Assembly: GCA_000934665.2 (NCBI GenBank)
Contig: JYFJ02000337.1
Coordinates: forward strand, 124,001 to 167,446
Length of the DNA stretch: 43,446 nucleotides
DNA from: Catajapyx aquilonaris
Lineage: Eukaryota
Direction: 5' to 3'
Of this stretch, positions 7,601 to 43,446 are shown piece after piece. A program made the position numbers and the translations under genes. Numbering within the stretch: the stretch's first letter is position 1; the number at the start of each line of letters is the position of its first letter. Under the pieces are notes generated by a model. It had not been told where the DNA came from and searched no databases. It worked only from the letters and a program-made list of their open reading frames with translations.

Positions 7601-8412
7601 TAAATAGTCTGTAGTCATTGTTGCTAATTGCTTATGAAACAATTACCATATTATTTTGATGACATATAAGACACCCTACACCTATTCCCCCCAAAATTGA
7701 CTTAAAAAATTGCTAGGCAACCTATATGCATAAATGCTCTTTTTTCTGGAATATGATCTACTGAAATGAGGATGCGTCTTACATGCCCGCACTTCTTATG
7801 TCATCAAATGTGGTAACAGCCCATCCATTAAGGTTTTGCCAAAACGAGTTGGCTTTTCATCCCTTTTAAAAATTGTTTGCTGGATTTTTAAAACAGACTT
7901 TGGTGCTTCCAGTCCCAATACAAGCCTGCTACTATTACAAGAAGGGAAATCCACCCATGACGCAGCCATGAAAAGCATGTGCAACAAGCAGAAATCGTGC
8001 GGAGCTGCGACTGGGCTGGGAATTAGTCCCTGTCCTACCTGATCCCTTGGCGCAACTGCTCCGTAACAGTCGTCCTCTGCGTGACAGACCACTTGTACAC
8101 TATGGGTTTGACAATTACCCCGCAAGCCCTTGCAACTCCCCGTATCCAATCCGGCTCATCAGGTCCAACCGGCGTGGACGTGCTAAGCGAGTACGTACAC
8201 GAGTCATGAGAACCTGAAACAAGCGTAACATTACAACACTGTAGTGTGGCCGGCAACAAGTGTACCAGCAGTATACCAGGTATGGTGAGCCTGTTGACCG
8301 GCATGTGCCTGAGCTCATCGGGCAGGTTGGACATCCAGCTGTCCCAGCTGCCTGGAGCCATCACCACCCTGGCTGGCTTTGCTGACCGTCCTTCTCCGGC
8401 TGAGTCAGACAT
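4623..8412 (-). CDS. PLCXD: PI-PLC X domain-containing protein (PLCXD2/3-like), 335 aa, 4 exons
   Basis: Exons 8412-8277, 8213-8039, 6623-6315 and 5010-4623 have GT-AG introns with consistent phases and total 1008 nt. Motifs: WMSNLP..L.IPGSHDS, KWSVTQ..EQL..GIRYFDLR, HGLY, HPRELVFLDFQHFY, WPNT, Q.ILTP, NIVICDFV. Confidence 0.93.
5311..5965. mobile_element. Non-autonomous hAT DNA transposon in PLCXD intron 3
   Basis: Perfect 21-bp TIR TAGAGAACGGATTTCTAGGTT, perfect 8-bp TSD ATAATTAG (5303-5310 and 5966-5973), subterminal AATAGG repeats, CpG retained. Confidence 0.92.
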
Positions 8413-19694: not shown

Positions 19695-21150
19695 CAGTGC
19701 TGGACACATTAGCCGTCGCTGAATGTTTTTTCCGGCGGCGGTGGTGGCGTCGTTACCTGCCAACCCCGGCCGGCGGGCCAATTCAAACATCAGCATATCG
19801 TCGGCCGGGGATCAAAACCTCGTAACTCCATTTTTGCGCGAAAATGGACTTACGAGTGAGGTCAGTCGAGAAAATAATCACCCGTGTACGCTCAAATCCT
19901 CGTACCTCCAGTGACATCACAACGACATCTGAATTGTTAGCATGAACAGAAAACATGATTTTACAAAATGTTTTTTGTCCCTCCTGTAAAATTTGGGCTT
20001 GAGGAGTTACGAGGTTTTGATCCCCGGCCGACGATATGGAGAGTGCTTCCATTGCTGCCACTGTTTACAAATCGAGTGAGTGACGCGGACGACCCAGCGA
20101 CGCGACTGGTCTCTTCTGCCTGCTTCCACAGTATCTGCAGGGATACGCAGGAAAAAACGGGAAAATAATGATGTTAGAAGCAAACCACGTTGAGAAAATT
20201 ATCCCTGGACTCAAAGAAAGGTTTTCGTCCAGCACACGAAATGTATTCCACCCGTGAGGAGGGGGTGTCAATTAAGATCAGGGGTGTGCTAATTGAAAGC
20301 TCATCAACTGACGGATTCTGTTGGTTTTTGTGTCTTTTCATCGTACTTCGACACCTCTAAGACGAATGGAGACCATGCCCCGTATGCCAGACACCACGTC
20401 AGTCTTGTAATTTGTCCCCAAACACGTCATATCTCAAAATGGCTTCCGCTGTTCCGCATATACGAGTACGTGTTGTTCGCGTCATATTCGCGCCATGAAG
20501 AGATACACGACTAACGCTTGTTGCAGGTGTTCATATTATTGTGTCCAACCCCTGTACGTGTCATGTTATTCATGTATCTCTTCGTGGTGCGAATAGGACG
20601 TGAACGACACGTACTCGTATATGCGGAACAGCGGAAGCCATTTTGGGATATGACGTCTTTGGGGACAAATTACGAGTCTGACATACAGGGCATGGTCTCC
20701 ATTCGTCTTAGAGGTGTCGAAGTATGCGGAAAAGACACAAAAACCAAAAGAATCCGTACGTCAGTTGACGCACTTTGAATTAGCACACCCCTGATCTTAA
20801 TCATTGACACCCCCTCCTCAGGGGTGGAATATATTTCGTGTGCTGTGGACGAAAACCTTTCTTTGAGTCCAGGGATAATTTTCCCAACGTGGTTTGCTTC
20901 TAACATCATTATTTTCCTGTTTTCTCCTGCCTATCCCTGCAGATACTGTGTATTGTGTAAGTAGGCAGAAGAGACCCGTTGCTGGGTCGTCCGCGTCACT
21001 CACTCGATTTGTAAACAGTGGCAACAATGGAAGCACTCTCCATATGCCGATGTTTGAATTGCCTGCTGGCTGGGATTGCCAGGTAACACAGCGCCGTCGC
21101 CGACGAAAAAAAAAAAAAACATTCTGTGACGGCTAATGTGTCCAGCACTG
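19695..21150. mobile_element. Fold-back (almost fully palindromic) Tc1/mariner-type non-autonomous element
   Basis: TA|CAGTGCTGGACACATTAGCCGTC ... GACGGCTAATGTGTCCAGCACTG|TA. The arms stay complementary to a centre near 20540, apart from a nested insertion. Confidence 0.9.
19799..20033. mobile_element. 235-bp MITE nested in the left arm of the fold-back element
   Basis: Perfect 31-bp TIR CGTCGGCCGGGGATCAAAACCTCGTAACTCC flanked by ATAT on both sides. The right arm of the host shows the empty site (gcATATggagag in reverse complement). Confidence 0.9.
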
Positions 21151-23495: not shown

Positions 23496-23825
23496 CAGTG
23501 CTGGACATATTAGCCGTCGCTGAATGTTTGTTTTTTTCGGCGGCGGCGTTACCTGGCAATCCCGTCCGTCGGGCCAATTCAAACATCAGCCCATGGAGAG
23601 CGCTTCCATTGTTGCCACTGTTTACAAATTGAGTGAGTGAGTGCGCAGGCAGAAGAGACCCGTCGCTGGGTCATCCGCGTCACTCACTCGATTTGTAAAC
23701 AGTGGCAACAATGGAAGCGGTCTCCATGGGCTGATGTTTGAATTGGCCCGCCGGACAGGGTTGCCAGGTAACGCCGCCGCCACTGAAAAAGAAACATTCA
23801 GCGACGGCTAATATGTCCAGCACTG
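23496..23825. mobile_element. 330-bp internally deleted copy of the 19695-21150 fold-back family
   Basis: TA|CAGTGCTGGACATATTAGCCGTCGCTGAATGTTT ... AAACATTCAGCGACGGCTAATATGTCCAGCACTG|TA, with ~145-bp arms homologous to the long copy. Confidence 0.9.
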
Positions 23826-23974: not shown

Positions 23975-24226
23975 CAGTGGTTCCTAACCTGTGGATCATG
24001 ACCCCCTCTTCTAGGGGGTTGCGCTGTCGCCACGGTAATTTTTACTTGCAATAAATTTTACAGGATATTTCACCACAAGTCAAAGGTTTTTTTTTTTTAC
24101 GTTTTAATGTCTATACTAATCTTCACACTTCACTCTTTCACACTGGGTGTGTGTGTGTGTGTGTGTCTCAGGTTATTTGACTATCATAAAAGGAGGTCGT
24201 GACCCGGAAAAGGTTGAGAACCACTG
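23975..24226. mobile_element. hAT (Charlie-like) MITE containing a (TG)n microsatellite
   Basis: CAGTGGTTCCTAACCT ... AGGTTGAGAACCACTG termini; 8-bp TSD TTATAGAG/TTAGAGAG (7/8 match). Confidence 0.8.
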
Positions 24227-24572
24227 TTAGAGAGAAACGGTGAAATATGAAAATGATGAACATTGGGATTTCACCCCACATAAAGGTCTGATATTCTTGA
24301 ATTAATTCTGAGGTTTTAAGATCCTGGCATGGTAAAAGTTGCAGTGCATTTTATAACATCTGAGGTGACCAATTTTTTTGTAGAGGAACTGTGTTATTGG
24401 AGCAGTATGTAATCCTCGGTAAGATCACAGATGGATTTTCACTACAGGATGAATGTCAGTGTATGGATGAAGAGGGAGGTGCATAACACCTTCGCAAGAG
24501 CAAACATTGCTCTTTTCTACATTCTTCTCTTGTCTCATTACAGAACAATAATCTGGAAGTAAAAAACTTGTG

Positions 24573-27500
24573 ATGGATTGCTCTAGGAGTGTGCATAGTA
24601 CCGGTACAGAGGATGATGATAATACCAGCTTGGATTTGTCCGGGATGACAACACTTGATGAAGTGGGAGATGACGAGGACGATGATACTGCAGAAAGGGG
24701 GGAAATGTCCCCATCCCAAAGCATTGAGGACATTGATGCCATTAGGGGTGGGGACAGTGATTCAGTTAGGGATAATAGCAATAAGCAAGTAGAGGTAGGG
24801 CTTGCAGGCGATACTGACAAGCCAAGTATAGTCACATCCAGCGATGAACATGGGGGGAAAGATGGCTCGGTCCTAGAAATACTTCCAACTATTGGGGACC
24901 AACAAAAAGAAAGTATTTCTTTGGAGGGTACTGTGTCTGGTGTTTGTAGAGGTGACCAGACTCTAACCAGTGTCATTATTGGTGATGAAGCTCAGGGCAC
25001 AATCCTGACATTGCATGACATTCCAGGGGTGTCTGTGCCTTTAAATGAAGGGTCAATAGCACCTGTGACTCATGTGAAATTGAAGTGTGACAATGATATC
25101 AAAGATCCCAAATCATCTCCAGGTCCCATTGTCGAGTCTAAGGTGTGCTCTAAAACTGAGCCAGACACATCAGCAGTAGCTCCCGAGAGTCAGGAAGTCC
25201 CTGTGGTGCCAGTGGATGAGAAGATGCCAGTTCCGAAGGTGAAGATTGAAGGAGCTCAAGAAGAGGTTGCATCTGGTGTGCAGCCAACTGGAGATTCAGC
25301 AGTTAGCATGAACATGCAACCTGCAAGCAAAGACTGTGATGTAAAGGTTGGACCCAGTGACACGTCGAATTTGGAAGTTAAGAAGACTGAAGTTGCGAAC
25401 ATGCCTGATTCTCAGGCTAAGCCATCCATGCCTGCAGTGGAACCATCTGCTGCTCCAGTGAAACCACCTGAAGTGGAGGCCAAGCCAGCTGTTTCAAACT
25501 CAGAGGAAGCTGATTCCAGCATGCAGGCACCGAACAGTGGAACCAACGAAAGCAAGGCTGGAGATCCCAGTGTGCCTGGAAAGGTAAATATGTGTGCTAG
25601 TGCTCTTGTTAGTAATGAACCTGTTCACAGCATTGTTGGATTTGACGATATTAGTTTAGATGTAACACTAGATGCTGCAGAAGTGTTACCAATAACTCAC
25701 ACGGATGTGAGAGAGTGTAACGATGGTTTGGGGACCTCGGAGTGTTCAAATGTACCTATAATAGTGAATGCCCCGGAGCTGTTGCCTGGAACATGCAAAG
25801 ATGTTCCAGAAGAAACTGCGGATGTGGAAGCTGTAGATACGTTGGACACGGCTGCATCATCTTCATCTATGGAGGTCTTGCCTGTAACTTACAAAGATGT
25901 TTCAGATGATGTGAAGATTGAGAAAGCCTCAAAAATGGCTGCATCTGTTGAAGTGCCCGAGGTGTTACTTGAGTCTTGCGAGGACTTTCCTAAGTGTAGA
26001 GATGGAGATACTTTGCAATCTCCAGTTGTAATAGTAACTGATGATGCAAAAACTGTGCTATCTGATACATGTCAAGGAATTTGCGATGACATTGACAGTG
26101 CCAGTTCTGTACACATAGCCACTGCAGAGATGTTAACTAAACCTTGTGAGGGCGTTCTAGAGGACAGTGATAATGTGGCAACTTCCAAAACTTTAAATGT
26201 AGCTGTAAGTGTTGATGCTGTGGAGATGTTAACTGATTCTAGTGAAATTATGCCTGGGGAAAGGGATGATGTAGTCGTGACTGTTGAAGCTGCAAAGGTG
26301 TTAATTGAATCTTGTGAAAGTATTCCAGAGGGAAGGGATCAGGGAGATGTGTCAAGTTTTTCAAATGTGGTAGAAACTGTTGGGGCCACTGAGGTACTTC
26401 CTGAACCTTGCAAAAATGATGTTGAGACTTCCAAATCTTCTGATTTAGCTGTACCTGTCAGTGTTGCAGAATTACATGAAACTGGCATAAATGTATCAAG
26501 GGACAGCTCAGGGGCTTTAGAAACATTGAAAACATGTGCACTGGTTGATGTAAGGACTGTGTCACCTACGACTTGTGATAATAGTCAGCAGTGGGAAAAC
26601 AAAGCAGGAGGCAGCGAAGAAATAGGTAGAGATTCTGACTTGCCATCAGAAACTTCCAAAGACATGCTACTTACTGACAATGTTCCAGGGATATTGAAGG
26701 TTTGTAATAAGACTGATTCTAAATCCAGCATTAAGACTGACACAATTCCATGTAAAGTAGTGTTGTACCGCATGCATATTAGGAAGAAATATTTTTCTCG
26801 CAATGGGCAAGTTCATCTGAAGAAGTTTTTAAATAGTGGCACTTATGCTTACATGAACCATGTGTACAGGAAGCTGCGACATATGTCAGGTAAATGTCTT
26901 GCAGAGCACAAACGACATGAGCATTCGCGAAGTAGGAGCAGGGAGAAAGTTAAGGCAGAGGCCTCTAGAGCTGTGAAACGAGGCAAGAGCAAAGTTGGTA
27001 GGTCTGGCAGCAAATCCAACCTTAAGCCAGCTGGCAATGTTGAGGAAAGGAAGAAAATGAAAGTGACAGAGTCTACAAGTCAGGGTAGTAGTAACTCAGG
27101 CACACCTGTAGATGTTGTAAAGGCTAAAAATGAAGGGTCAAAGGCAGCTAACCGGAGGAAGCCCAGCACTCATAGTGATGAAGACCTGAACATAAAGAAC
27201 ATATTAATGGAGGAGATTGGTGATGACAGCTTGTTTGATTTTGATGATCTAAATGAGGGTCATGACTATGCTGCCTTGGTTGATATTGTCTCCAAGTCTA
27301 TTGAGACATTGGAGAGTGAGCATGAGGATGTTGGCGAAGCAGTTGGTGGGCCAACAATATCTGAGCCAAAGGAGAAGAAACTGCAAGAGGAAGTCAAGCC
27401 TGAAGAAACCAAGGCAGCGGAAGGGGTGGTGAAGATTAAGCCCATTATTGAGCCGAAGCAGGCCGAGGAAATAAAACGGCCTGATGAAATAATACAGGCC

Positions 27501-28837
27501 GAGGAAGTAAAACAGGCTGAGGAAGTAAAACAGGCAGAGGAAGTAAAACAGGCAGAGGAAGTAAAACAGGCAGAGGAAGTAAAACAGGCAGAGGAAGTAA
27601 AACAGGCAGAGGAAGTAAAACAGGCAGAGGAAGTAAAACAGGCAGAGGAAGTAAAACAGCCTGAAGAAGTAAAACAGCCTGAAGAAGTAAAACAGCCTGA
27701 AGAAGTAAAACAGCCTGAAGAAGTAAAACAGCCTGAAGAAGTAAAACAGGCAGAGGAAGTAAAACAGCCTGAAGAAGTAAAACAGGCAGAGGAAATAAAG
27801 CAGGAGGAGGAAGTAGAGGAAATAAAGCAGAATGAGCAGCTAAGGAAAGCTGAAGGCTCAAAGAAGCCAGATGAATCAAAGCAAGTAGAGAAGCAAACAT
27901 GTGCTGAAAGTAATAAGCAACTTGAGAAATTAGAGGACACGAAGAAGCTGAAACATGAAAAAACAAAGCAAGTGGAGAAGAGAAGAGTGTCTGATAAGTC
28001 TGAGTCTGAGAAACTAGGAGACAGCAAGAAACAGAAACGTCGTGAAAAGCAGGGGCAAGAAGAGAGACAGAGAGAAGAGAAGGGTAAACCAGCCAAAAAA
28101 TTGAAGCGCATAGAGAAGCTGAGAAAATGGCAAAGGGAGTTGGGTGTTAAGATATCCGAGGATGACCTTGTTAAACTGAAAGACTGTTCCGTTGTGTTGC
28201 AGAAGTGTGTTGTACCTGAGAGTAGTGCGGGATCTGCTGTTACGGAGAAAGTAAAGCGCAGGAATAGTGTAAAAGAGGAGGACCTGGAGGAAATGGGGGA
28301 GTCTAGTAAACAATTAGCGAAGGGCCAAGAGAAAGTGCACGTGAGGAAAAATATAGTGCTCAATCTGAAGAAGCCTATTGGGAAGTCAAAAGAGTCTGAA
28401 AGGAGTGAGGAGAAGGGTAGTGAGGCAAAAGACAAAAGCATGCTTGTGGCTGAAGTGTTCGAGGTTGTAGATGATGACTCAGTGGGAGGGCCCTCAGAAA
28501 AGGAAATCAGTGTGGCAAAGAATGGAGTTGCTGAAAAGGGTAGTGATGTGAGGGGCGACAGGCAATCTGTTCCTAGAAGTAGTAGGTCTGAGCAGCATCG
28601 ACATGGCAAGGACGTCCTGAAGGAGGAAACCCAAAGGGCCAATGAGAAGAGGCAGCAGCGATTGGAGAAGCTGACCGAGATGTCCAAAGAGAGGAGGGTG
28701 AAAGGGGAGTACCGAGAACATAAGGAGCACAGCCATAAGCCCCAGAAGTCTGCAAGTGCCAAAGCAAAGCCTGACGATACAGAGAAGTCCCTCAAGGTGT
28801 ACAAGGCTGCTGCTGGTGAGGATCTTAAGTCCTTTAA
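24573..28837 (+). CDS. 4.27-kb first coding exon of the giant zinc-finger gene (acidic, low complexity, repeat-rich)
   Basis: Stop-free 1,423-codon frame. Acceptor ctcattacag| at 24543, in-frame TAA at 24549 upstream of ATG 24573, donor AA|gtaagt at 28837/28838. Confidence 0.88.
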
Positions 28838-31800
28838 GTAAGTAGTGTGAGGATTTTTTCTCCTTTTTTCCTGTTGATGTAGCTCATAAGGATGTATTTG
28901 CAAGTCACCATGTTGTTGATTTGGTATTCTATTTTCAACTTCAAATTGTGCTTAAAGGGCTTCTGAGGTTGGGTTAGACGTCAAGCTCCAAGAAATTAAA
29001 TAAGCAGTCACATTCCTGTGGTGCACTTTATTATTATGATTTATTTTATTTTATTTTATTTTTCCAAAATTGGAAGCTGCAGTGAGATGACAGCAGATTG
29101 GGTTGCAATGGCAAAATATTACACATGCACTACCTGGCAGGAGCATTCATGGTGCAAAATTGGCATATGGTGAAGTAGCTCTGATTATTATCATCACCAA
29201 GCACTTGAATAAGTCTGAAGTACTTAAGATATGTTTTTTCTCTTCTGAGCCATTGTATTGTAAATTTTGTATAGTTATGAATTGATGCGGGTGATGATAA
29301 TCATACCATATGAGTTGCTTTTCACTGGGACATTTCCCCATTGTTTGAAGCAAGAGTGGTGAGAATCATGACTTTATCACCAATTTGCAATAATCAAGGA
29401 TGACTATATTAACCAAGTCATTCAGCGTCATGACTGCTCTAACTAGGCAGTGCAGCATGGAAAACCATGCTTCATTGCTGTCTCGTGGACTTTTCCTGAG
29501 CTTGCCTGCCAGATGTGAGAAAATTGGACTGCAACCTTGGAGTCAGATGTTTTTTACAAAAAAAGTGCCATCTTGTAAGTCAGCCTCAGACCTTTTAAAA
29601 TGGCCATAAAATTTGGGACATATTGGAGTATTCTGGTAAGTTACGTGGTAATGATGTCACTGATAGAGTGATGTTCATAGTGCTACACTATTAGGTTCCA
29701 TAGGGTTATATTCTGTTGGAGTGAATTATGGATTTGTGATGGCAAGTTTTTTTTGCAAGACTTGTGAGAGCCCTTTTACAGCAGAAATACTGATTTTAAA
29801 TTAAGTAAGATTGGGGAGGTGTGGTGGCCGAGATGGTAATGTCTCGGCTTACTGAGGGAAAGGTCCCAGGTTCGATCCCCACCTGGGATGTCCCTTTCGC
29901 CTGCGTCAGGAGGGTCTCTGACCCGCACCTTGGAGGTGTCTGGCAACCTAACCTCCTGGGGGACTGCACATGACCAGTTTACTAACATTGCACCTGCACC
30001 TGTGTCCCCTCCCCAAAAATCTGCATCCCCACCCCCCCATGTCCTTTCGTTCTTGCACCGGTGCTGAAGAAAAATAAGAAAATGGTATTTAAGGTGGTTC
30101 ACACACCCCCCCCCCCCCTCCCCCTGTCCAAAAAACAGCTCTGCTCTCCAATGGAGTAACTAAAAATAATTAAAAAAGTAAGGTAAGATCAGATCTGAGC
30201 CAGAAATGGTTGGATTGAAGTGGACTAGGGCAGATTCAAGATGATTACTGGTAATATGGATGTAATTAGGCTTTCAGGGATTTCAATTCTTGTGCTGAAT
30301 TTTTATGATAAATTGCATGAAATTTCTATGTACTTAAGTATGTAATGAGTGTACTTGCCCTATGATCTTGGTGCATTTACTAGTTCTTTTCAATGGGGGC
30401 GGGAGGGGGAGGGGGGGGGGGCAGCAATCGTGTGATAAAAATATGTGCTCATTTCACATCAAATGTCCAGGTGAGCAGAAATCAATTAGGGGTCATTCCC
30501 ATTCTGCATTTCAGAAGCTTGCCATAATAAACAAGTTTGACCAACTTTCTGACCATAATTTTTGTGCGCGCCCAGTGATTATGGACGTAATATTTAGACA
30601 CGTGGGATACAATAGAGGAGTTGGGGGGAGTGGAGAAATTGCACAACAAATTGAAATAAAGGTGCGTTCACATATACGCGATATTGAACAAAAACGAATG
30701 AATTTCAGCTTTCTGCGAATTCGAGTCTGGCCGAAGGCATTCACGTATCGGCGATTTTCCCCTAGATGTGAGCAAATTTTGGTCTACGCGACTAAACTAA
30801 AAATCGCACTCCTCTGTCAGAGCCAGATAGAAGCCAATTTTTGACGTGAGCGAATTTTGGAGTTGGTTCGAGCCACCCAGCGCCGCCACCCGGACTTGTC
30901 GGCCTTTCTCGACCGTGTTGGGAATGCGGATGCCCGAGCTCGGAAGTTACCTATTTTTTTGTCGCAGACTCCTGACCCGGCCAGCCTCCACACCATGTCC
31001 AGCTCTTGCCCCACTTCGTGCACTGTGACCTGGACGGCCTTACGATGTCGGTTCAGCAGCATTTTCACTGCCATGCCGGCTGCCTCCGCAGCACAGGCTC
31101 CGCCATCTTTCTCAGCCCAACACCTCCCCCTGCCCACATGACCCCAACCCTGTCCTCCCTCCTACCTGCCATGCTGCACCGCGCATGCGCCATAACTAAC
31201 GAGTAAGTTTTATCACATAGCGGATATGTGAATGCCCGGAAAATTTGCCAAAAATTCGTTCGCTTCGTGATGTAAAAGATGCGAAAAAGCAGAACCTGAA
31301 AATCGCTCGCAAGTGTTTATTCGTGTATATGTGAATGCACCTTAACACATTTTGTGATGTCCAGTTGGATGTCATGGAATTATTTTTGTTAGGGTTGGGA
31401 TGGACAGAGGTGGGAGGTAAAACCAATCAGTATGCTTCTTGTTTTTTGGGAACGTACTGAAAACTGTACTTATCATGCAATGAGGAATTCACTTATTTCG
31501 AGTTACATTTTATAGGCTAAAGTAGTTGCAATTTTGGATTAGTGGAGACAATGATGCAGGATATAAGAACAATAGAATCTGAATGTGAACAGGCTGTCAC
31601 TTACTGTCACCACTATGGCTGGGACAATCTGTGTTAGGCATGTCTGTAGTTTTGGAGAAGATTTTGTAATGTCATTATGTGAAAGCATCTAAGCTGATAT
31701 AATACAAAGATACTTAAGGTAAAATTGAGCTATTTGGTTACGTGCATACCATGTAATAGATGCAGTTACTGGAAGAAGAATCCTGAAGCTTCTCATAGAT

Positions 31801-34800
31801 AGGTCTGAATTGCTACCCACCAAATTTGTTGCCATTAGAGTAAAAGTGTTGATACGATGAGAGAAACTAAATATTGGATGAAGTATTCAACCCCCACCAA
31901 GAGGAAGGATGCATGCAACGACAGCAACACGTGATGAGCAACATGCAGTCTTTTGATCTTGTGCACTGGAACAGATGCTCATCAAGATGCAGGAGGAGGC
32001 AGATATCCTGTGGTAGCGTGTCACTGGCAGCAACCAAGAGTTGATGGAACCACCCATCCGCGTGCGGTCAACTGGTCCACTTTATTTGATGGGCTGGGCG
32101 TGAAAGTGTGGGTTGGGGTCCGTGAATGAAGTTCTATTGGCAACCAAATTTGTTAGATGGGTAGGTGAGACTCACCTACATCTTGGGATCCTTCTTCCTA
32201 TAGTGCAGCGGTTCTCAAACCTTCCCACATCGGGCCCCTCTGGGAAAGTAATTTCAGATACTAACGAGTAAGTTTTATCGCATAGCGGATACGTGAATGC
32301 NCCCCCCCCGGGTTTCCCCAAACCCAATGAACGGAAGCAAATTTGTGTTCAAGGTCACACAAGCTTAGGTGAATGTAATAACTAACAAAGTACAGTGGAA
32401 TCCTCCTGTACGGTAAGCACATCAGATATAAGCAAGTAGAAAGGTCGGTCTCTTCATATTTCCAGCAGTGCCAATGTACAAGTGCAGTTGAATCTGGATA
32501 TAACAGACTTGTCTGCTATCTTCTGACTGCACAAATCCTTATTCAGAATTGCTCTTTTGGCTTTTAGAACTGCACGCTACAGTTAGCCCTGATCGAGAAG
32601 TAGTTCTTACCTAATCAGCGCGACTTTTGCGCTTGTTTCGAGTCACATAAGTTATGGATTCGCCCCACACCCCCATTGTCACCCCTTTGGCGCCCCCCCC
32701 CCCCCNCCCCCCCCCCCAGGGGGGTGCGCCCCACAGTTTGAGAACCTCTGCTCTAGTGCTAACCTATACTATATGCAACCTTGTTGATGCACTGCTTCGT
32801 GGACTACAGTTACTTAAACCCCCCTTATACATTACCAATTTTTAATGAATTAGCTCATGGCTCATCCAGAAAATTTAGCCATTGTTTTTAAGGGTGTATC
32901 TGCTTTGATATTGCAGGCAAAGTTTAGGTGGAAGTTCCATTAGAACCAGCCACACAAAGGAATGCCAAGGTTGGTTCTCATGATAACTCTGCCCAGACTT
33001 CCTCTGCAATTTGAGTAAGTGTCTCAAAGCAAAGGATAATTAATTTTATTGGATATAGGGACTGTTACTAAGGTGCGTCAGATATTTGGCTACCAAGTCC
33101 CTTATCACCTTTGTTCAAGTGCCACTAGTATATATTTAAACTATATTATGTCTGTGTGTACTATTGAACATTGGCATCTTAGGAAAAGGATTTCTATCAT
33201 GAAGTAGTTGCAATAATATCATGTACACCCAAAATGGAATATCTGAGCACCTGGGTTTGGTAGTGAAATGAAGAGCTGGCAAGAAATGGCGGTTGTTCTT
33301 GCTCTATGTAAATTGCAGCTACGACCTGTGACTCTCCCTCTCCCTTTCCTCCACACTTACCATAAGCAACCTTCCTTCTGCCTCTCTGTGTAGGTATGTA
33401 TTGAATGGCTTCCTGAGAAATGTAATTGAGGAACTGCTCCCAGGAGCAGCAGGTCTGGCTGGAGGGTGCTGGAAGGGGAAGGTTAGGGAGAGCTCACCTG
33501 CAGAAGTTACAAATGTTAGCCCCTATTGGGATGCATTCTTTTGATATTGGTCAGTATGCTATACCGTGTTCACTAGGCAGCCTACTGCTATTAAATTGAT
33601 TCCAGGTCTCATCCACTCCCATTTTGCCTGTGGGTGTGGTGGCTCATTCAGTGAGCTGTTTGTTATTAGGTAGCGTATGTACTTATTCTGTAAAAACGGA
33701 GAGGAGGAGGTGGGGATTGCAGAGATAATAGATTGGAATGTTCAGGAGTGAATTGAATGTAGGATCTCTCATACAGTGTGTAAGACTGATAGTGTTTTAA
33801 AATACTGGAATGCCTCTTGCCAGGGAGCAAGAGTGATAGCGACTATGCTAGATGATAACAAATATTAAGATGCAAACACACCCCAATTGTCTGGTAGCAA
33901 AAAAAAACACATTCCACCAAAGGGGCCCAAGTGCAAATGTTACAATCTTTCCATGCATTTATCAACCACATTCTATGACAGGGGTGGGCAAAGTTTTCTT
34001 TTTGTGGGCCGGTCTAAAAATTCTAAACCATGGGGCGGGCCGGTAGCAACTCAAACTCCATGTCAAGTGACTACACAACAAACCTAGGATCAGTCACGTT
34101 ATTTTTAATTTTTATACTTAATTTGTGTCAGAATGTTAGGACTGCCGATTGCTAAAGCTAAGGCTAAGTAGCGAAGTGCTAAGAGCTTACTCATATGACA
34201 TATTGTATTTGATAAATTAAATGTCAATCACCCTAACCGTGTAGACTTCACACTTTGGCAGACAGGTTGGTCCAAAGACTTTCGCAGGCCTGGTGTGGGC
34301 CACATGCTGCACTTTGCCCACCCCTGTCCTGTGAGATAAAGGAATTAGCAGTCATGTAGGTGAATTATGGTTCACATTGCATCTGCCCATTATAACAAGC
34401 TATTTAGGTAATGCGAGCTGGACCTGACAGTCGTGGAGAAATAGCGAACATTATTTTTCATTGCATTGTTTGTGTGAATAATTGGTTTCATGTTACTTAT
34501 GGAAATTAATTTTTTGTGGCTAACACTGCCTGTTGAGAGTACTGGAACAATATGAACTGGATGTTTATGTACGTGCCTGGATGGCATCCAGCGTGATTCG
34601 TATATGGTGAATGTTTTCGTGAATATTCGGTCTACTTACAATTATAAGGTAGTGTGTAGCTGCTTAATGGACGATGCAAAGCTCACATCCATGCTTGGCA
34701 TTATATGGAACTCCTTGAGGGATTGGCTGAGGGGCTTACTGGATGGCAGCTGTGACATTAATGGTAAATCTTTGGTATAGTAATAGAAAGAATTGCATTT

Positions 34801-37800
34801 TGTGAAATGTATGTAGTGTAAGAGTCGATTCACTTCAGAATGCCTAAGTTACATTGTAATCTCTTTAAAACTGGTATTTATTAGATAACTTTTTGAATTA
34901 AAATTTCTGCAGATCACAGAATTGAGTCAATGACGTTTTCTCAAGTGCACATCATCTGGAATTCCATTTACATGTTCATTAATTTTTAGTGTTTGGTGGT
35001 CTCCAGTTTTTTTCAGTAACCCACATATGCCACACACATTACATTACAACTCTTCTTCAGCTGTAATATACTACTGTATTTTAAAATATGAACTCAACAA
35101 AAACTGCTTCTTGAGTATTGGGTTTGAAGTTGGTGACTCTTGAATGGCAATGGTGACTGGCACCATTCAGAACTATTACATTACTGTCACATGTCAGGAT
35201 TGTCAGATGGATGTCACTGCTTAGTTTTACGCTATCATTATATTAATGTGACCACAAGCAAGCAAATAAGGGCATTTATTTTGACATCAACCTAGTCAGA
35301 ATTGACACTAAACATGTCCTTCAGTGATTTGTTTCCTTGAGTGAGTTTGGTCTGTTTGTTTATATTGGCTAAACTTGTTGGCTTATTTAATTAAACGTGT
35401 CCATTATGATCAAAGGCAATGAGAAATGAAAGCAGTCAGTGTTTATATGGGGCTTCAATGCAGAATTATTTTGCAGGTTTTGTCCTGATAACAATTAATT
35501 TATTAGGTGCAGAAAAGCATGAAATAATGAAATTGAAATAATGATTAAAGCTTTTAAAAATAAGTGTTATTAGACTTTATTTCAAAGAGGAAATTCGACT
35601 TTGAGATTTTTTTGTAATTCTGCACTGAACCAACAGCTTTCGGTAGTTATTGTTCATGTCATGGACACAACGACCTTTAATGAGCTGCCGTAATTGTCAT
35701 CAGACAAGCAAACCGTAGTGAAAATGTGTGCTCTTTGTAATTTCAGGATCCCCAAAAAGCAGCAAGAGTTGTCCCTATCAAGAAAGAGGGAACGTTCGAA
35801 GGACCCGCTAGTCAAAGGAAGTGCAGATGAAAAGCAACGCCATTATGACAGCTCGTCTGGGACTAAAAGGGCCCATGATGGTGAATATTCCAGGAACAAG
35901 AAAGAGAAGAGGGAACACTCCATCAAAACCAAAGAGGCGAAGGAGGATATCCAGAAAAAGTACAAGCGTAAAGAGGCACCGCTTCCAGGTTGGGAGTCAG
36001 CTACCTCCAGGAGATACCGAGAACCATGGCAGGGTAAACTCTGTGAAAGGAGCACATCAAATGAAACCGCCCTGGTGCCTGTCACTGAGGTGAAGCCACA
36101 ACCCCCTCCCCTCATGGAATTTGCTTCTTACCAGCAAAATGCTCAACATACTATCCCACTACAACCCACTATCCCTGTGCTGGTCACTCGGCGACAACCA
36201 ACTCGGTTTTCAAGTGGCAGTGAGGTTGTTCAGGCTAGTGCAGAGCCTGGTGGCAGGGTTTTGGTTAATGTGAACAATCCTGCAAATGCATTGCAGGGTG
36301 TTGGTCATCAAAAGCCAATATCTACTGTTAATTCATGGCAGTCATATGTGACACCAGTGCAGCCTATTCAACCACTTGCGGTCCCCCATCAAATGCGCCC
36401 AAATTTAAAGACAATTATGACTGAAAGGCAATTTCCAGATTGGACAGTTGCAGGACTTGGGCATGCTTCCACTGCATCAGTGGCCCCAAGCTGGGCAGCA
36501 GAGACAGGCCTGACTGATGCGGGACCCCAGTGGTCTTATACAGGTTTTGAGGATATTTCATCCAGTATAACCACCAGATGGGATCAGTCTGGTCTTGAAA
36601 ACATTTCAACTGAAGAGGAAACTGCAAGAAAGTGGTCAGATGTGGGTTTGGAGAACATTTCAACTGAAGAGGAAAGTGCCCGAAAGTGGTCAGACATGGG
36701 CCTGGAAAACATATCACCTGAGAATCCTGCTCCGAAATGGTCAGACATGGATCTTGAGAACATCTCTGGGGATGGAGAAGGGGTTCCAAAATCTTCACCA
36801 GATCCTGCTCTCGAGAACATCTCGGATGACTCATATGGTATTGCTGTTCAGGCTGAAAGTGTACGACAAAGGGCTCCAGGTGATCCTGCTTCTGTTTCAA
36901 CCTGGTCTGATGGACGGGTGACAGTACCATCACCAATGTATCATGAACCAGAACCAGAGGTGGATGACCGGTGGCTCACAGGTGTCAACTTGTTAGGCAC
37001 CTCCTCTCAGAGAGTGAAGAGATCAGTGCACAAGTGCCAGATGTGGGTGGCCAGCAACATTGAGTACTTTCTTAAAGATACGCCAGAAGAAGATAGTCGA
37101 TCACGAGGAAGTGGTGCTATGATGGATGTACTCTCTGCCAGTGTCAGTGATATTACATCAGTTTCTGAGCCTGTTGCACAGGAAGATCGGGATAGAAAAG
37201 GCAGACTGGCAAAGTGCCTGGAGAGGATACGTGGAATGGGTGGGCCACAAAATGTAGGTGACAAGCATGAGATTGAACCAGAAAAGCCTGAGATTAAACC
37301 AGAAAAGCCAGCTGAGGTGTCAGCTGATCCTCCAAATTTGAATTCAATCTTAAGCAGATTGCGTGGATTGGTTCATAAGAAGGATGTACCATGCAAAGAG
37401 GAAGTAAAAGCACCCGTGGTTTCAAAGGAAATCAGGATTGTTTATAGGAAGGATCTGCCATGCAAAGAGGACATAAAAGTACCTCTGGTTTCAAAGGAAG
37501 AAATCAGGATGGTTTATAGGAAGGATGTGCCATGCAAAGAGGAAGCAAAAGTACCTCTGGTTTCAAAGGAAGAAATCAGGATGGTTTATAGGAAGGATGT
37601 GCCATTCAAAGAGGAAGTAAAAGTACCTCTGGTTTCAAAGGAAATCAGTAAGGTAGATACGTCTCCAGTTAGTAAGACCAAAGCGAAAAAGAAGGAAGAC
37701 CAGCATATGAGTGATGTTGAAGGATGGGGCACAGCACCTTGGTTGCCAAATGTGGTAAGTTGAACTTTCTTGTTCATATAACTTCTTGTATCAAGATGGT

Positions 37801-40800
37801 CATAAAAATTTCCATATCAAATATTTAGCTTTATGAAAGTATTATACCTGTTGTTTTCTATGTTACTTTTTAACGAAAATGCAGTATTACCTCATTTAGG
37901 ATTTGTAAATTCTAACTTTACACCAAATTCTAGGAGAAATTGCATTTCAAGCAGTACCGCTATCTAAATATTTCTGTCAGGGATAAGCCCAGCTTGTATC
38001 AGTGAACATTCTTTGAGCAAGTGCTTAAATATTTGGACTTTATTGTTCCTCTTTGAAGGTTAATTCAGTTATTTTTACAGAGTGAATTTTAGATGACGAA
38101 ATGATGATGAAATTATTGTTAAAAATTGGCTACCATTTATGCAGTGAGCAGCCATTTTTAAAAACATGTTATTAACTTATTTATGGTTATTTGAATTTTA
38201 ATGAATGTATTTTTATTGAGACATAAGTGAAATTAGTGATTTTAATGGCATACACACTACTTAAGCAGACAATTGTTTCCCCTAGAAACACGCAATTTGG
38301 TCCAATCACCAGTACCAATATACTTGAACAATGCTAAATATTTTTGATCCCATTTCACAGACATATTTTTGTAATTGTCACTGAGTGACTCTTGAGTGTT
38401 ATGATTACACTTTTATAATGAAGCGATCGCCGGCCTTAATACAAGCACAAGAAGCTGTCAGCAAGAAGATGTTTAATGGCACTTGGTTACAAATGATGAC
38501 TTGGAATCATTAGCCATTGTGCCGAAGCCAGATGACATGACAAGCTCTATTAGCATTTCTCTCCATTACCTTCGGCATATAAAAGTTGTATTAAAAATTC
38601 GTGGGATGTGATAACTGCATTTTGGCCTCGCTGTTACTAGTTTATCACAGTTAAAATAAAGAAAGGAGAATAGATGTCCTGTAATGTATTTAATACAGAC
38701 TAGCATTTCCCCCCAGTGAAATGTTTGCATGCCTTTTCTAGTAATTAAATTTTTATGACCATCTCTGTACAAGCATATGAGAATAGTGTATCAGTAATGA
38801 CAAAAATTACAAGTTACCTTTTCTCCGTTTCAGGTAAATTTGCCCTGAATGTGTAAAGAGTAGGGATAAATCAGAAAAAAGAAGCAGCAAGTCCTCTCGT
38901 TTTATGATAGGATGGGCTTAGGACCTTGGGAATGGTTTTTTTTACTGGGCCTGCCATGGAGTGTCCAGCTTCAGGACAAATTTGCCTGAATTTGGATTGT
39001 ACAGTGAAACCTGCATAAATTTCGCAAAAATTGTCTGCAGTGGACTAGTCTCCGCTATATCGGAGAATACTAAACTAGAAAAAAATCACTTAAAGTCACA
39101 TTAAATTTGCTTCCCCCCAAGTTAGTACATTTTTGAAATACCAATTTGTGGGGTCACTTCCAACTAATTGCTTGCAATGGCTATTTTTTATTGTGCTTGT
39201 GTTGCTTGCATCAATTTTCCACCTCTCCTTCCTTGGTGTATGTGAAGTGGCTTTAATGGAGAATAAATTCCAATATGCACAGGTATTTTTTTCACTGACT
39301 TGTGAGCAGCCTATAACACACGTCTAGACAGATTTCGTTACATCTGACAAAAATTCACTGGAAATCTTATCTTGCTGCCAGTATCACAAAATCTCTCTGC
39401 AGTCGCCAAGTTTCTGCTGTATCCTAGGTCTGCTACAGGCAGGTTTCACTGTAGTAGTATAGATGCTATGCATAAGAAAAATATCAATAATTTGTTTTCG
39501 TATGTGTATGAAATATTGGTTTCCGATACAGTGAATAAACTGAGGCAACAATATATTGTCGTTTTGGTAGTGCCTAGAATGGTGGTATAATGATTCTCAG
39601 GCATAGAGAAGTAAATTGCTATCAATATAAAAATCGTAAAACTGCAGCATTTGTTTTTCATTCATTTGTACCAAGGAGCTGTGTTGTAAATGACTCAATT
39701 GTTATTTTATGATAATGCTATTTTCGATCAGGTATTTCTGAATGGCTATGTCCATATTGTAATGGAGGCAGTGAAATATTACAATCGAAACAATTTTTAT
39801 TTATTTATATGGACCATTTTACTTGCCTAGCCTGTGCTGCGCACCAAATCAAGAGGCAGGGTGGTCTTGGCTGACGGAAATGAATATACCATCCTGGAGC
39901 GGGCAGGCGCACTTCACATCACCTGCCATGTTTGTGAGATAACTGCTTATGGGTGGAGGAATTTTGACTTCCATGTGAATGGCAAGAAGCACATGACAAA
40001 TCTGAAGTTCCAAAAGAAACCTCCCATGAAGAGCATAGGTAGATATTTTTTTTTCGTTAGTCCTGGGCACCAGCAACATATGTAATTGTCATTTTCAGAG
40101 CCACCTGTAGAACTCAGTCAGCCCTTGCCACCTGGAGTTGAGGAAGTGGTGTTGGACAAACCGAGCAGGACGGCAGCAATCATGGACATTGTGCAGAGCT
40201 ACAATTCACCTGTCCCAGGTAGATTCAGTGCAAGGTCTATTCCAGTAACTTTGAATGACATGTATTTTGCCTGGCTAGGTGTGGAGTATGTGGTTGAGAT
40301 TGTGCAGTCTGATCAAGACCCCCTGTACATATGCATCGTGTGCATGATGCGAGCTCGGAGGCACACTGTGATGGCACACATGAGCAGCACATCACATAAG
40401 CTGAAGTACATTGTGAGTGAAAATTTTCATTTACCTTTAATGTGTAACTTTTGCAATTGCAGCAGTTGGTAGAAATTATATATTTAAAAATCCTTCTGAA
40501 TTTTAATAGGAAAGATATCATTAGTATATGTTGGGCACTGTTCAGAGTCACCAGCAACAGTTTAATTCTATGAGTTAAATAGCCTGCCCTTCATTAGTGC
40601 AATGCATTGAGAAAATTGCATATAAAGTTGCTTTTTCTGCCTAGGGTGTCATGTGGCAGTAAACATGGGCTGCAGGTTCAAGGTTGATGTACTTTACACT
40701 AGTTTTTTTTTGTTTTGTGTACATGTTAAATCTTTGGTTAAACCATGATTCATTTTTAGCCCAAGGTTATTCAACCCTGTGATTTGTGCAATCATTATGT

Positions 40801-41958
40801 ATACAGGCCTAATTTGCCTGAAATGGACTTGTGCTTTTTACATTCATTGTCACATTGATTTGCCATAAGCCACTGATGTTCTTTAGGAACAGTTTGGCTA
40901 ACCAGTCAGTCACATTTTTTGAGCATATGATTTTAATTAGCCTTCACTTACCATTTAAAAAATTGGTTAACATCAGGTTAACGTTGCAGACAAAGCAGAA
41001 AAATTACTGACATCCCTTCCCTGGCTCTTTCTTCTTCCTTAGGAAAAGTTTTTTCCTGACATACACTGCAAGTTTAGTAAGGTGGACTTCACCAGCTGGA
41101 TGGCTGAGACTCATCTCAAGCTGTCTAATTTTTTGAAAAAAGTAGAGGCACACTTTGGACGCCTTCAAGCTATTGTAGTGGACCGCGATGTGTTTGAGAA
41201 GGATGCTGCGGAGGTGCTTACCAGGATTGAAGTTGGTCCTCATTGGAAGTAAGCATTAACTAGTAGTAGTTTTTTTGAATGCTTCATTTGTTGACCAGTG
41301 ACTTAAACTCCCTTGGAAGGTATGCAGAGCTCTCAGTTAAAATTCCCCTTTGCCATAGTTTTTCTCTCAAGCAGTTTGTAAAGTTCTGGCAGAACTTGAA
41401 CCCTACATTCTGTTTTGAAATTTGCAGCTCCACATGGCAAGGTTTTGCCTACAATGTGCATCAGGCAATGTTGATGCTAGTAAGTAAATGTAAACATGAT
41501 TATTAGTCAGTCACAGGTCTCACAGGTGATGGAAATATTGGGTGGAACCTTGAAAGATTTTTCTGGGTTTTCCCACTCACAAAGGCGGATGTGATATTCA
41601 TTGACTAACACTTTGATTCTACATTGGTTGTATCAAGCAACTTGAGAATTACAGTGCCTGACTTGGAACTGTGCTTTTCCAGACCTGTTCCAGAATTGGA
41701 TTTATCAACAATAGAAGATCCCTTCCCAGGGATTCCGGACCCTCCATGTTTACCTCCACCAAGGCCTGCAGCTGCCCCTGTGGCATTGGGTTTGCTGAAC
41801 AATGAGCCTCTCAAGTTCGACTGGAATAAACCTCCATCTGGTTAGAGAGAATTGGCAGTTTTTGTTTTTGCATAAGGATGTGAACTTAATATTCTTGATT
41901 ATTTACTTGCAGCACCTCCTCCATACTTGTTGGAAAATCTAGGAAGACAGCAGGAGAG
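24573..41958 (+). CDS. Giant, largely disordered protein with C-terminal U1/matrin-type C2H2 and CG7065-like zinc fingers; 3'-incomplete, at least 2,381 codons
   Basis: Phase-consistent exon chain: 24573-28837, 35747-37754, 39831-40038, 40099-40218, 40279-40412, 41043-41248, 41683-41840, 41913-41958, then beyond the window. Zinc fingers: CHVC-x12-HVNGKKH and PGVEYVVE..YICIVC..HMSSTSHKLKY followed by EKFFP..VEAHFGRL..IEVGPHW, resembling Drosophila CG7065 from memory. Joining the two large exons to the finger exons is inferred. Confidence 0.72.
27501..27803 (+). repeat. Coding 18-bp minisatellite encoding (EEVKQA/P) x16 plus EEIKQ
   Basis: GAGGAAGTAAAACAGGCA and GAAGAAGTAAAACAGCCT units, in frame within the giant exon. 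Confidence 0.97.
29813..29890 (+). mobile_element. tRNA-derived SINE head (or tRNA pseudogene)
   Basis: Pol III A-box TGGCCGAGATGG at 29825-29836 and B-box GGTTCGATCCC at 29869-29879 with tRNA-like spacing. I could not build a clean cloverleaf. The body may extend to about 30075. Confidence 0.6.
30660..31342. mobile_element. PIF/Harbinger-type non-autonomous element
   Basis: TAA|AGGTGCGTTCACATATACGCGA ... TCGTGTATATGTGAATGCACCT|TAA: 22-bp TIR with 2 mismatches and a 3-bp TAA TSD. Internal TIR-like motifs near 30737 and 31223. Confidence 0.85.
32206..32750. mobile_element. hAT (Charlie-like) MITE with assembly ambiguities
   Basis: CAGCGGTTCTCAAAC ... GTTTGAGAACCTCTG termini; TSD CTATAGTG/CTCTAGTG (7/8 match); N bases at 32301 and 32706. 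Confidence 0.75.
33979..34326. mobile_element. hAT MITE
   Basis: Perfect 16-bp TIR CAGGGGTGGGCAAAGT; degenerate 8-bp TSD TTCTATGA/TCCTGTGA (6/8 match). Confidence 0.78.
35747..37754 (+). CDS. 2.0-kb second large coding exon of the giant zinc-finger gene
   Basis: Acceptor aatttcag|G at 35746/35747 is phase 2, matching the upstream donor and reading SFK-IPKK. The ORF is open for 689 codons. Donor GTG|gtaagt at 37754/37755. Confidence 0.86.
36543..36830 (+). repeat. Coding repeat (~54-bp unit) encoding W-S-D-x-G-L-E-N-I-S-acidic motifs, 6 copies of the core
   Basis: GFEDISS, GLENISTEEE x2, GLENISPEN, DLENISGDGE, ALENISDD. Confidence 0.9.
37371..37646 (+). repeat. Coding tandem repeat (69-72 bp, 4 copies) encoding VYRKDVPCKEEVKVPLVSKE(E)IRM
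   Basis: Four near-identical units visible in both DNA and protein. Confidence 0.93.
39002..39451. mobile_element. Tc1/mariner-pogo (Tigger-like) MITE, copy 2
   Basis: TA|CAGTGAAACCTGC ... GCAGGTTTCACTG|TA; same family as 3561-3971. Confidence 0.72.
39831..41248 (+). CDS. Zinc-finger-encoding exons (U1/matrin-like C2H2 plus CG7065-like finger and helical region)
   Basis: Four exons with canonical splice sites. Cys/His spacing C-x2-C-x12-H-x5-H (HVNGKKH), and a second C-x2-C...H-x5-H finger preceded by GVEYVVE. Confidence 0.82.
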
Positions 41959-42011
41959 GTGAGTGTTTTAAAAATTGGTGATTATACTAATTTTCTTTGT
42001 GATTGAGAGTA

Positions 42012-42314
42012 CACTGTAATCCCTATTATCCGGGTGCAGATTATCCATCTTGCGGATTATCCGTGCATGGCTAAAGCAAAGAAGAGTCAGAAAAATATCA
42101 ATTTTCTCCAAAACAAAAAAATGTAGCAGACTTTTTCCAAAGACAATTTAAAAATTTACGAAAACTTTTCCAACATTGTTTAAATCCTATTTAGAGCAGT
42201 ACAGTTATTCATTAAAAACATGTGAATAGCTCATCTGTTTTCCGATCATCTGTGTTTTCCAATTAGCCGGTGACACCTGTGCAGCCATTAGCCTGGATAA
42301 TCAGGAGTGCAGTG
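42012..42314. mobile_element. Tigger/pogo-like MITE
   Basis: TA|CACTGTAATCCCTATTATCCGGG ... CCTGGATAATCAGGAGTGCAGTG|TA imperfect TIR with repeated GATTATCC motifs. Confidence 0.68.
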
Positions 42315-43446
42315 TATATCCATGCTAAATCATGGCAAGAGGAAATTAGTCGTGTGGCCGGCATTTTTTTGAAAATCCATTTTAGTAGAAATTGTTAAGG
42401 AACAGAAACACATGCAATTTTCAGCATAATTTTGAGAAATATGCACATGTTTCCCAGTTTACAAGTCTCAGTGGCATGAGGATGGGAAGGTTTGAAATCC
42501 CATCCGCTCACTTGAGTGCATGCACATTCAGTGCAGATGCAGACATTGTAGATGTTGTGTAACTGCACACCACTTAAGTTCATTGTTTGCGTGTGTCTTG
42601 GCTGAGTATGTTTTCATCCACTTCTTTGCAGTGTTATGTAGTTTTTGATTATTTTTTAAAGTAGCAATGGCATCTAGGCATAAGGCCACGTTTACATGTG
42701 AATGATTCATTCAGCAATGACACCATCTCTTCAGGGGGCGAAAATCGATTGTTACTTTCGTCCCAAACAATTGGTTTCATTGCTCAGTGATGCTCACATG
42801 TAAACGAGGCATAGTGCAAGTGTGTTGGCGAGTGTGCGTAGATGAAAGAAGGTTAGGATTAGCCTCAGTGTAAAGTATGCATGTTTGTTAAACTTGGTTC
42901 TGGGCTGTGTATAGCATTCGACGGCCACGAAGTCTGTGTGATTTAATCCAATGACAGTAAATCTGCAATAAGGAAGAAAGCATACGTAGAGCTGTGCATG
43001 AATCGGTCTAGAGTGCATGATGAACATGGTCCTGCACGAATACAACTCCTCCTTTTCCAAATAGGATCAATAGTTCTGTCTTCACGGAGTTTTCAAGGAA
43101 CCTAACACCTTCTAATGTTAGCACTGACTGTACAGTAAGCCCCCGGTCTACTAACGGGGTTACCCTCTTGAAAATGTCCATAAGTCAGATCGCTGAGGAA
43201 CAGAGCATTATATACAGCATGAAGATGCTGCTCCAATGAACTGCTTACGTTGTGTGTTTGTTTACCTGGGCAGAAGAACATGGTTTCCCAATTATTTATT
43301 CATTATACAAATATACAGTATTTGTTTTGAAATTGGTGTTGTTCAACAGAGGCAAAAGGGATTTTAAGTGGATGAATAATTATAAATGATCCGTATGGAG
43401 AGCCTTAGAGACCTTTCGTAAGTACGGATCGCCATCAGTGCTGGAT

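Follow-up and report, generated by a model that had tools for sequence, protein, structure and literature searches.

A gene for a giant, repeat-built protein with two RNA-type zinc fingers and an in-frame exitron in Catajapyx aquilonaris

Gene structure and expression

The window analysed here is a 43,446-nt stretch of animal nuclear DNA from Catajapyx aquilonaris (GenBank assembly GCA_000934665.2, contig JYFJ02000337.1, positions 124,001 to 167,446, forward strand; coordinates below are those of the window). It contains a real, expressed animal gene whose protein, of ~2,380 residues, is mostly unstructured and ends in two RNA-type zinc fingers. The data are best explained by one gene of eight exons on the + strand with two products: a long form of 2,382 residues, and a short form of 1,509 residues from which an in-frame exitron, an intron lying inside a coding exon, has been removed. 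Within this model we infer the links between exons 1 and 2 and between exons 2 and 3.

The gene is dominated by two large open frames on the + strand, at 24552-28841 (1,429 codons) and 35694-37763 (689 codons). The longest open run reached in 200 shuffles was 172 codons for the region, 156 for the letters of exon 1 and 169 for those of exon 2. Base composition depends on codon position in both exon 1 (chi2 380, p 5e-79) and exon 2 (chi2 96, p 1.5e-18), a dependence not seen in either large intron (p 0.3 and 0.58). The shuffles and the codon-position composition confirm the two huge open exons (4.27 and 2.0 kb) noted in a preliminary description of this DNA.

Exon 1 (24573..28837, + strand; 4,265 nt) begins at the first ATG, seven codons past an in-frame stop, encodes residues 1-1421 plus two bases of the next codon, and ends at a consensus donor, AAG/GTAAGT. 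Exon 2 (35747..37754, + strand; 2,008 nt) has the acceptor TTTCAG/G in phase 2 and the donor GTG/GTAAGT in phase 0. All four sites at the two long-range junctions are canonical (28837/GTAAGT, TTTCAG/35747, 37754/GTAAGT and CCTAG/39831) and the phases are compatible: phase 2 at the end of exon 1, phase 0 at the end of exon 2. The frame of exon 2 is open for just 53 nt upstream of its acceptor and requires two bases from an upstream exon; since the exon 1 donor provides exactly these, the arrangement supports a single gene. The frame of exon 3 in turn is closed by a TAG just before its acceptor, and no ATG precedes the first finger; the exon therefore requires an upstream phase-0 coding exon. 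The nearest is exon 2, with its perfect GTAAGT donor.

Six small exons follow, all on the + strand. Exon 3 (39831-40038) contains finger 1, exon 4 (40099-40218) encodes a proline-rich linker and exon 5 (40279-40412) contains finger 2. Exon 6 (41043-41248) encodes the 68 residues directly after finger 2, exon 7 (41683-41840) a proline-rich tail, and the coding part of exon 8 (41913-41962) a PPPY motif (41915-41926) and the stop codon (41960-41962). The spliced frame stays open through all six and closes at 41962, giving the total of 2,382 residues; the gene end of 41958 proposed earlier lies at most one codon away from the last sense codon, and the stop itself ends at 41962. Exon 4 lies between two introns of only 60 nt. 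The first (40039-40098) has an in-frame stop, and the second (40219-40278) is open in frame, so that its retention would add 20 residues just before finger 2.

Expression was examined in a single public run, here called X1, which contains 0.30 of the sampled exon 2 words and whose contigs were placed on 24000-42500. They differ from the window by at most one letter in the listed pieces, and we take them as complementary DNA (cDNA) because they contain GT..AG skips. One contig of 1,409 nt comprises 39830-40038, 40099-40218, 40279-40412, 41043-41248, 41683-41840 and 41913 onward, with five such skips. By summed piece lengths it is estimated to run ~530 nt further past the stop as 3′ untranslated region; no AATAAA lies near the estimated contig end, the only related signal being ATTAAA at 42211. 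Another contig, at 35900-36165, falls in exon 2, and others fall on exon 1. The earlier proposal that the giant exons splice in phase to six small ones is thus upheld by canonical sites, matching phases and the five downstream introns in the 1,409-nt contig, while its two long-range junctions, 28837/35747 and 37754/39831, are deduced from the sequence.

Exon 1 itself contains the exitron, a 2,619-nt in-frame GT..AG intron at 25584..28202 (+ strand) seen as the joint 25583/28203 in an X1 contig (mapped 25581 to 28201, cut +2). Further X1 contigs lie inside it, at 26678-27112, 27228-27548 and 27756-28176. Because contigs both join across the interval and cover its interior, spliced and retained forms both exist. 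A GT..AG intron inside a coding exon, with both forms present and a length divisible by 3, is what defines an exitron, a term used for in-frame introns inside coding exons by Marquez et al. 2015 (PMC4484396). Its splicing deletes residues 338-1210 (873 residues, 37% of the protein) and leaves the 1,509-residue isoform.

The repeat-built region

The first ~2,090 residues, the product of the two giant exons, are charge-rich, poor in hydrophobic residues and built from five families of short repeats. Overall the protein is 11% E, 10% K and 10% S, with several 100-residue blocks that are 40-55% charged. Residues 1-700 are acidic, residues 701-800 are basic (net charge +17), and residues 1100-1500, again 40-55% charged, hold most of the eight basic clusters of the form K-[KR]-x-[KR]. 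The disordered, repeat-built character given to this region in the preliminary description is largely borne out by its low hydrophobic content, its charge and its repeats.

Tandem Repeats Finder called four coding arrays at the DNA level, all on the + strand and every one with a period divisible by 3, in agreement with the four independent arrays reported earlier. An 18-nt array in exon 1 (27459-27815, 19.8 copies) encodes about 20 hexapeptide units QAEEVK/QPEEVK. The other three lie in exon 2: a 54-nt array (36597-36721, 2.3 copies), a 21-nt array (37263-37309, 2.2 copies) encoding KPEIKPE, and a 72-nt array (37369-37643, 3.9 copies) of 24-residue VYRKDVPCKEEVKVPLVSKEEIRM units. The 54-nt array falls within a run of tryptophan-bearing 18-residue repeats, hereafter W-repeats (36579..36824, + strand), which read K-W-S-D-x-G-L-E-N-I-S followed by an acidic tail, five copies having LENIS and one FEDIS. 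To these we add a fifth, diverged family visible at the protein level, an acidic repeat of ~32 residues in 8 copies (25677..26492, + strand; residues 369-640) with the core [AE]-E-V-L-P-x-x-C. Counts of synonymous against non-synonymous differences among repeat copies were confounded by differences in unit length and were not used. Tandem repeats coding for unstructured sequence are a common feature of long internal exons (PMC12457776), and repeat-built giant exons are therefore not unusual in themselves.

On the − strand, an open frame of 561 codons (27266-28951) lies opposite the purine-rich end of exon 1. The strong skew there (GC skew 0.34-0.36, AT skew 0.23-0.46) explains this frame without a gene.

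The zinc fingers and the C-terminal exons

The two C2H2 fingers that had been noticed in the small exons were located at 39924-39992 and 40332-40397 (both + strand). Finger 1 (C2123-H2145) has the spacing C-x2-C-x12-H-x5-H of the U1-like/zf-met class, and finger 2 (C2219-H2240) the spacing C-x2-C-x11-H-x5-H. In the spliced translation both thus share C-x2-C...H-x5-H; the long H-x5-H spacer is a mark of U1-like fingers, as opposed to the H-x3-H of classical DNA-binding fingers. Each is preceded by G-x-E-Y, extended before finger 2 to G-V-E-Y-V-V-E, and 96 residues separate C2123 from C2219. The pattern G-x-E-Y-V-V-E...C-x2-C...H may resemble that of Drosophila CG7065, as suggested in the preliminary description.

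Finger 1 scores above the cut-off of the Pfam family zf-met (PF12874), with 22.4 bits against 21.2 (E 1.5e-4; 22.1 bits in another run). Weak hits to zf-C2H2_jaz and SF3a60/Prp9 also suggest this class, and the best solved-structure match is the finger of the spliceosomal protein ZMAT2, at a weak E of 0.021. Against PF12874, finger 2 gave nothing up to an E of 10. In the ESM Atlas, whose neighbours we treat as leads only, the clusters nearest to finger 1 are zf-met/jaz (0.96, 182-185 shared features). Finger 2 has arthropod hypothetical clusters (0.90) and AKAP95-domain clusters (0.87 and 0.84) among its neighbours, and three clusters are common to the lists of both fingers. The U1/matrin-type label given to the pair earlier accordingly holds for finger 1, by profile score, spacing and Atlas neighbours, whereas finger 2 stays below threshold. 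Structure prediction for exon 3, made with no alignment, gave a mean predicted local distance difference test (pLDDT) score of 46.

Around the fingers little is recognisable by profile. The 68 residues of exon 6, described earlier as helical, matched no Pfam family apart from an insignificant hit to RGCC (E 0.054), and exons 4 and 7 had no Pfam match. The last 82 residues are 23% proline, with the PPPY motif at residues 2368-2371. The module G-x-E-Y...C-x2-C...H-x5-H could be family-specific and so usable as a probe for relatives.

Searches for relatives

Exons 1 and 2 have no Pfam match at E <= 1. A word-index search with exon 1 among proteins of 785-2,501 residues scored 8,000 candidates, none at E <= 0.001. 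The same kind of search with the open reading frame 40086-40472 among proteins of 225-2,000 residues yielded 70 candidates, none at E <= 0.01, and finger 2 alone, among proteins of 78-2,000 residues, found no candidate with three shared words. Exon 2 was compared exhaustively by HMMER with 1.84 billion representatives and returned one match (E 4.6e-5), a 1,466-residue repeat protein that we judged to be phage-tail-fibre-like; only the repeat aligned, and we regard this as a chance likeness to the W-repeat. A solved-structure match to STE5 (E 0.14) was also rejected, as was a LIM-protein match to an E/K-rich stretch, for which no qualifying stretch was present.

For the finger exons the comparison reached proteins of 2,000 residues at most, and the absence of relatives is weak evidence. 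The unstructured part may have evolved fast or, equally, this lineage may be thinly sampled in the databases.

Genomic surroundings

Two recognisable genes lie upstream, a PFKFB gene on the + strand (Pfam 6PF2K, E 2.8e-31 and 1.9e-37) and a CCDC47 gene on the − strand (PF07946, E 2.7e-31 and 1.5e-15). By comparison with human CCDC47, the genome looks like that of an invertebrate evolving slowly. Between CCDC47 and the gene described here are ~5 kb of nested repeats. They include a foldback of ~1 kb (20034-21045) made of four nested inverted-repeat pairs, with arms of 79-118 nt that are 91-96% complementary; related arms occur at 23539-23781. This element is probably a transposon of the foldback type or a miniature inverted-repeat transposable element.

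Intron 1 contains a short interspersed element (SINE)-like sequence derived from a transfer RNA (tRNA), at 29813-29980 on the + strand, with box A and box B-like motifs. X1 contigs are stacked on it at a word depth of 100-670 and have loose ends on either side of it; Rfam and tRNA (ARAGORN) scans found nothing, at this element included. The window has only two N letters, at 32301 and 32706, both spanned by X1 contigs, which at one site skip 99 nt of the window and at the other replace 66 nt with 23 other letters. These Ns look like assembly-gap placeholders or insertion/deletion differences.

Elsewhere in the window, a serine/threonine-rich terminal exon (124-939, + strand) with no Pfam match ends in W-R-P-W before its stop, which we take to be the C-terminal tetrapeptide of hairy/HES-type repressors. 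Several open frames on the − strand in 4600-8400, for example 6302-6664, resembled in our view exons of a phosphatidylinositol-specific phospholipase C X-domain protein; the two pieces tried had no Pfam match at E <= 0.01.

Proposed role and alternatives

We favour the view that the protein acts as a nuclear, RNA-anchored, multivalent scaffold of the working type represented by AKAP95, ZNF318 and the TEsup proteins. We give this reading as a whole a probability of about 0.55, placing the gene model higher and the mechanism lower. In such a scheme the two fingers would tether the protein to RNA, in the manner of other U1-like fingers, with duplex or otherwise structured RNA the most likely target. 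Short docking motifs, present in many copies along the unstructured region, would gather partner proteins on the bound RNA. Removal of the exitron, with its 873 residues and three repeat families, would alter the number of partners able to dock. The role of a nuclear RNA/chromatin adaptor, already suggested in the preliminary description, is a reasonable inference, and judged by its profile match the protein can be placed only as a zf-met finger protein. To call it the best candidate for an undescribed system, as was done earlier, overstated the case: a single gene is seen here, and its architecture is of a familiar kind. New here are the exitron, the two introns of 60 nt, the fifth family of repeats and the position, 41962, at which the stop ends.

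Several points weigh against this proposal. Nuclear location, RNA binding and partner docking are all predicted. No homologue was found for any part in the Pfam, word-index and HMMER searches, within the scopes given above, and the usual support that conservation lends to function is therefore missing. Finger 2 lies below every Pfam cut-off, its best matches being zf_C2H2_ZHX (E 0.005) and zf-C2H2_2 (E 0.006), and a BLASTP comparison of one finger with the other is not significant (E 1.7), which leaves an internal finger duplication unsupported. The kind of run X1 is recorded as "?" rather than RNA, and a processed DNA copy is formally possible. Six GT..AG joints are listed for X1, none of them crossing 28837/35747 or 37754/39831; several bins are without cover, but we attach no weight to these gaps, to the depths or to the start of the 1,409-nt contig at 39830. 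The link of the giant exons to the finger exons in a single gene is thus a proposal based on splice sites, phases and closure of the frame. Finally, unspliced exon 1 stops one codon past 28837 (AAG TAA) and so could be a complete coding sequence alone.

These last points bear on the alternative that the region holds two or three genes, with exon 1 a single-exon gene of ~1,422 residues containing one exitron, and exon 2 and/or exons 3-8 belonging to other transcripts with other 5′ exons. The missing long-range joints would fit such an arrangement, and an open stretch bounded by AG...GT at 39096-39301 could serve as an alternative upstream exon for exon 3. However, at each of the two unconfirmed junctions the donor is a perfect GTAAGT and the acceptor is preceded by a pyrimidine tract, and the phases match at both, for which the chance is ~1 in 9. 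Moreover, exon 2 has no in-frame ATG after its acceptor until about exon residue 125, and exon 3 needs an upstream phase-0 exon to encode finger 1. We consider separate genes unlikely, though still an alternative to be reckoned with. Far less credible, to the point of being nearly dismissed, is the notion that the giant frames are non-coding, whether decayed, transposon-derived or open by chance from a purine-rich composition. The lack of homologues for exons 1 and 2 would agree with it, as would the antisense frame, which shows that composition alone favours open frames at the end of exon 1. Yet open runs in the shuffled exon letters never exceed 156-169 codons, where 1,429 and 689 were found, the codon-position signal marks the exons strongly and is not seen in the introns, every array period is a multiple of 3, the exitron is in frame, and the exons occur in spliced contigs.

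Alternatively, the protein might belong to a known family. Its C-terminal module could be that of the AKAP95 family (AKAP8/AKAP8L/ZNF326; PF04988) placed on a lineage-specific giant unstructured region, which we rate as rather improbable, on a par with separate genes. An arthropod AKAP95-domain cluster lies near both fingers in the Atlas (0.87 and 0.92), and finger 2 also has an AKAP8L cluster from chordates as a neighbour (0.84), although scores below 0.9 are leads only. The 96-residue finger spacing is close to the approximately 90 residues of the AKAP95 family. PF04988 was unreported for exons 3, 4, 5, 6 and 7 at E up to 10, each exon being searched singly, whereas the profile spans both fingers, which are here spread over three exons. 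The pattern of the amphipathic kinase-anchoring helix, a feature of AKAP8 only, matched once, whereas 500 shuffles averaged 2.3 matches, so that no such helix stands out above chance. The layout itself, an unstructured scaffold with two pre-mRNA-binding fingers, is that described for AKAP95 (PMC5105168).

Membership of the TEsup family (CG7065/CG31510), whose proteins link nuclear Argonaute/Piwi complexes to nuclear-exosome adaptors, seems less probable again. U1-like fingers combined with long disordered, serine/arginine (SR)-rich regions are reported for this family (10.64898/2025.12.16.694471), and arthropod neighbours recur in the Atlas, again as leads only: besides the hypothetical clusters (0.90) there are a 763-residue zf-C2H2_2 cluster (0.84/0.91) and the AKAP95-domain cluster already mentioned, of 250 residues. 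Against membership, the domain order differs, as the fingers are N-terminal and the recognition domain C-terminal in the TEsup proteins described in that preprint. No aromatic tandem domain was recognised by Pfam in exons 1, 2, 6 and 7 or among solved chains, and the word-index searches with finger 2 found no relative among proteins of 78-2,000 residues. More speculative still, and a long shot even beside family membership, is that we see a very divergent giant counterpart of the TEsup or AKAP95-type two-finger scaffolds. In it the five or six W-repeats, which are evenly spaced, would offer multivalent hooks to a nuclear partner, of the Argonaute/PIWI type or another, with the PPPY tail a ligand of a proline-recognition or WW domain, and the exitron a switch between high and low valency. 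In a genome outside the arthropods, such a counterpart would widen the range of a pathway so far regarded as specific to them.

Relation to known systems

Within the U1-like class (PF12874), the protein shares with ZMAT2/Snu23, SF3A2/Prp11 and ZNF346/JAZ the profile and spacing of finger 1, ZMAT2 being also its best solved match. Those proteins are small or have at least three fingers, with known partner domains, whereas here two fingers follow more than 2,000 unstructured residues, and finger 2 departs from the class in its x11 spacing and sub-threshold scores. Closer in layout is the AKAP95 family (AKAP8, AKAP8L/HA95 and ZNF326), in which an unstructured scaffold is likewise combined with two widely spaced C2H2 fingers. 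In AKAP95 the N-terminal unstructured region binds RNA-processing factors and the two fingers bind pre-mRNA; it is numbered to residue 692 (PMC5105168), making the protein described here about four times longer.

Comparable in size is ZNF318/ZFP318 (TZF). The fingers lie mid-protein in the long form of ZFP318 and are C-terminal here, and the likeness is one of description: ~2,000 residues, one or two U1-like fingers, and a length strongly altered by splicing. ZFP318 is 2,025 residues long; the number of its U1-like fingers, one or two, varies between isoforms, and its splice forms measure 902/924 versus 2,025 residues (PMC11520953).

CG7065, called uncharacterised in the preliminary description, no longer is. 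A December 2025 preprint (10.64898/2025.12.16.694471) describes it as TEsup-2 and CG31510 as TEsup-1, nuclear Piwi cofactors that link to nuclear-exosome adaptors, and a second preprint agrees with this account of CG7065. The TEsup proteins have U1-like fingers at residues about 51-83 and 476-506, long disordered and SR-rich regions, and a C-terminal tri-helical proline-recognition domain with tandem aromatic motifs that binds exosome-adaptor scaffolds (10.64898/2025.12.16.694471). The authors restrict the family to Arthropoda and define it by significant similarity to each of the three domains common to TEsup-1 and TEsup-2 (10.64898/2025.12.16.694471). What the protein here has in common with them is the combination of U1-like fingers and long disordered regions. 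The domain order is reversed, its fingers lying C-terminally at residues 2123-2240 of 2,382, and neither a Pfam family in exons 1, 2, 6 and 7 nor a solved-chain match indicates a proline-recognition domain of the TEsup type. A further similarity is that the TEsup adaptors bind partners via proline-rich motifs, and the tail of the present protein is proline-rich and includes an aromatic residue.

With the exitrons of PMC4484396, the intron in exon 1 shares an in-frame GT..AG structure wholly within a coding exon, the presence of spliced and retained forms, and the encoding of disordered, motif-rich sequence. It may differ in size: at 2,619 nt, or 873 codons, it seems to us very large for an exitron. 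The locus thus offers a clean example of giant exons growing by tandem repeats and of a very large in-frame exitron, together with a finger module to serve as a probe. If the model is true, it adds another large, repeat-built nuclear scaffold with U1-like fingers as its RNA anchor to the class of AKAP95, ZNF326, ZNF318 and TEsup, members of which are now known to regulate splicing, the decay of RNA or the silencing of transposons.

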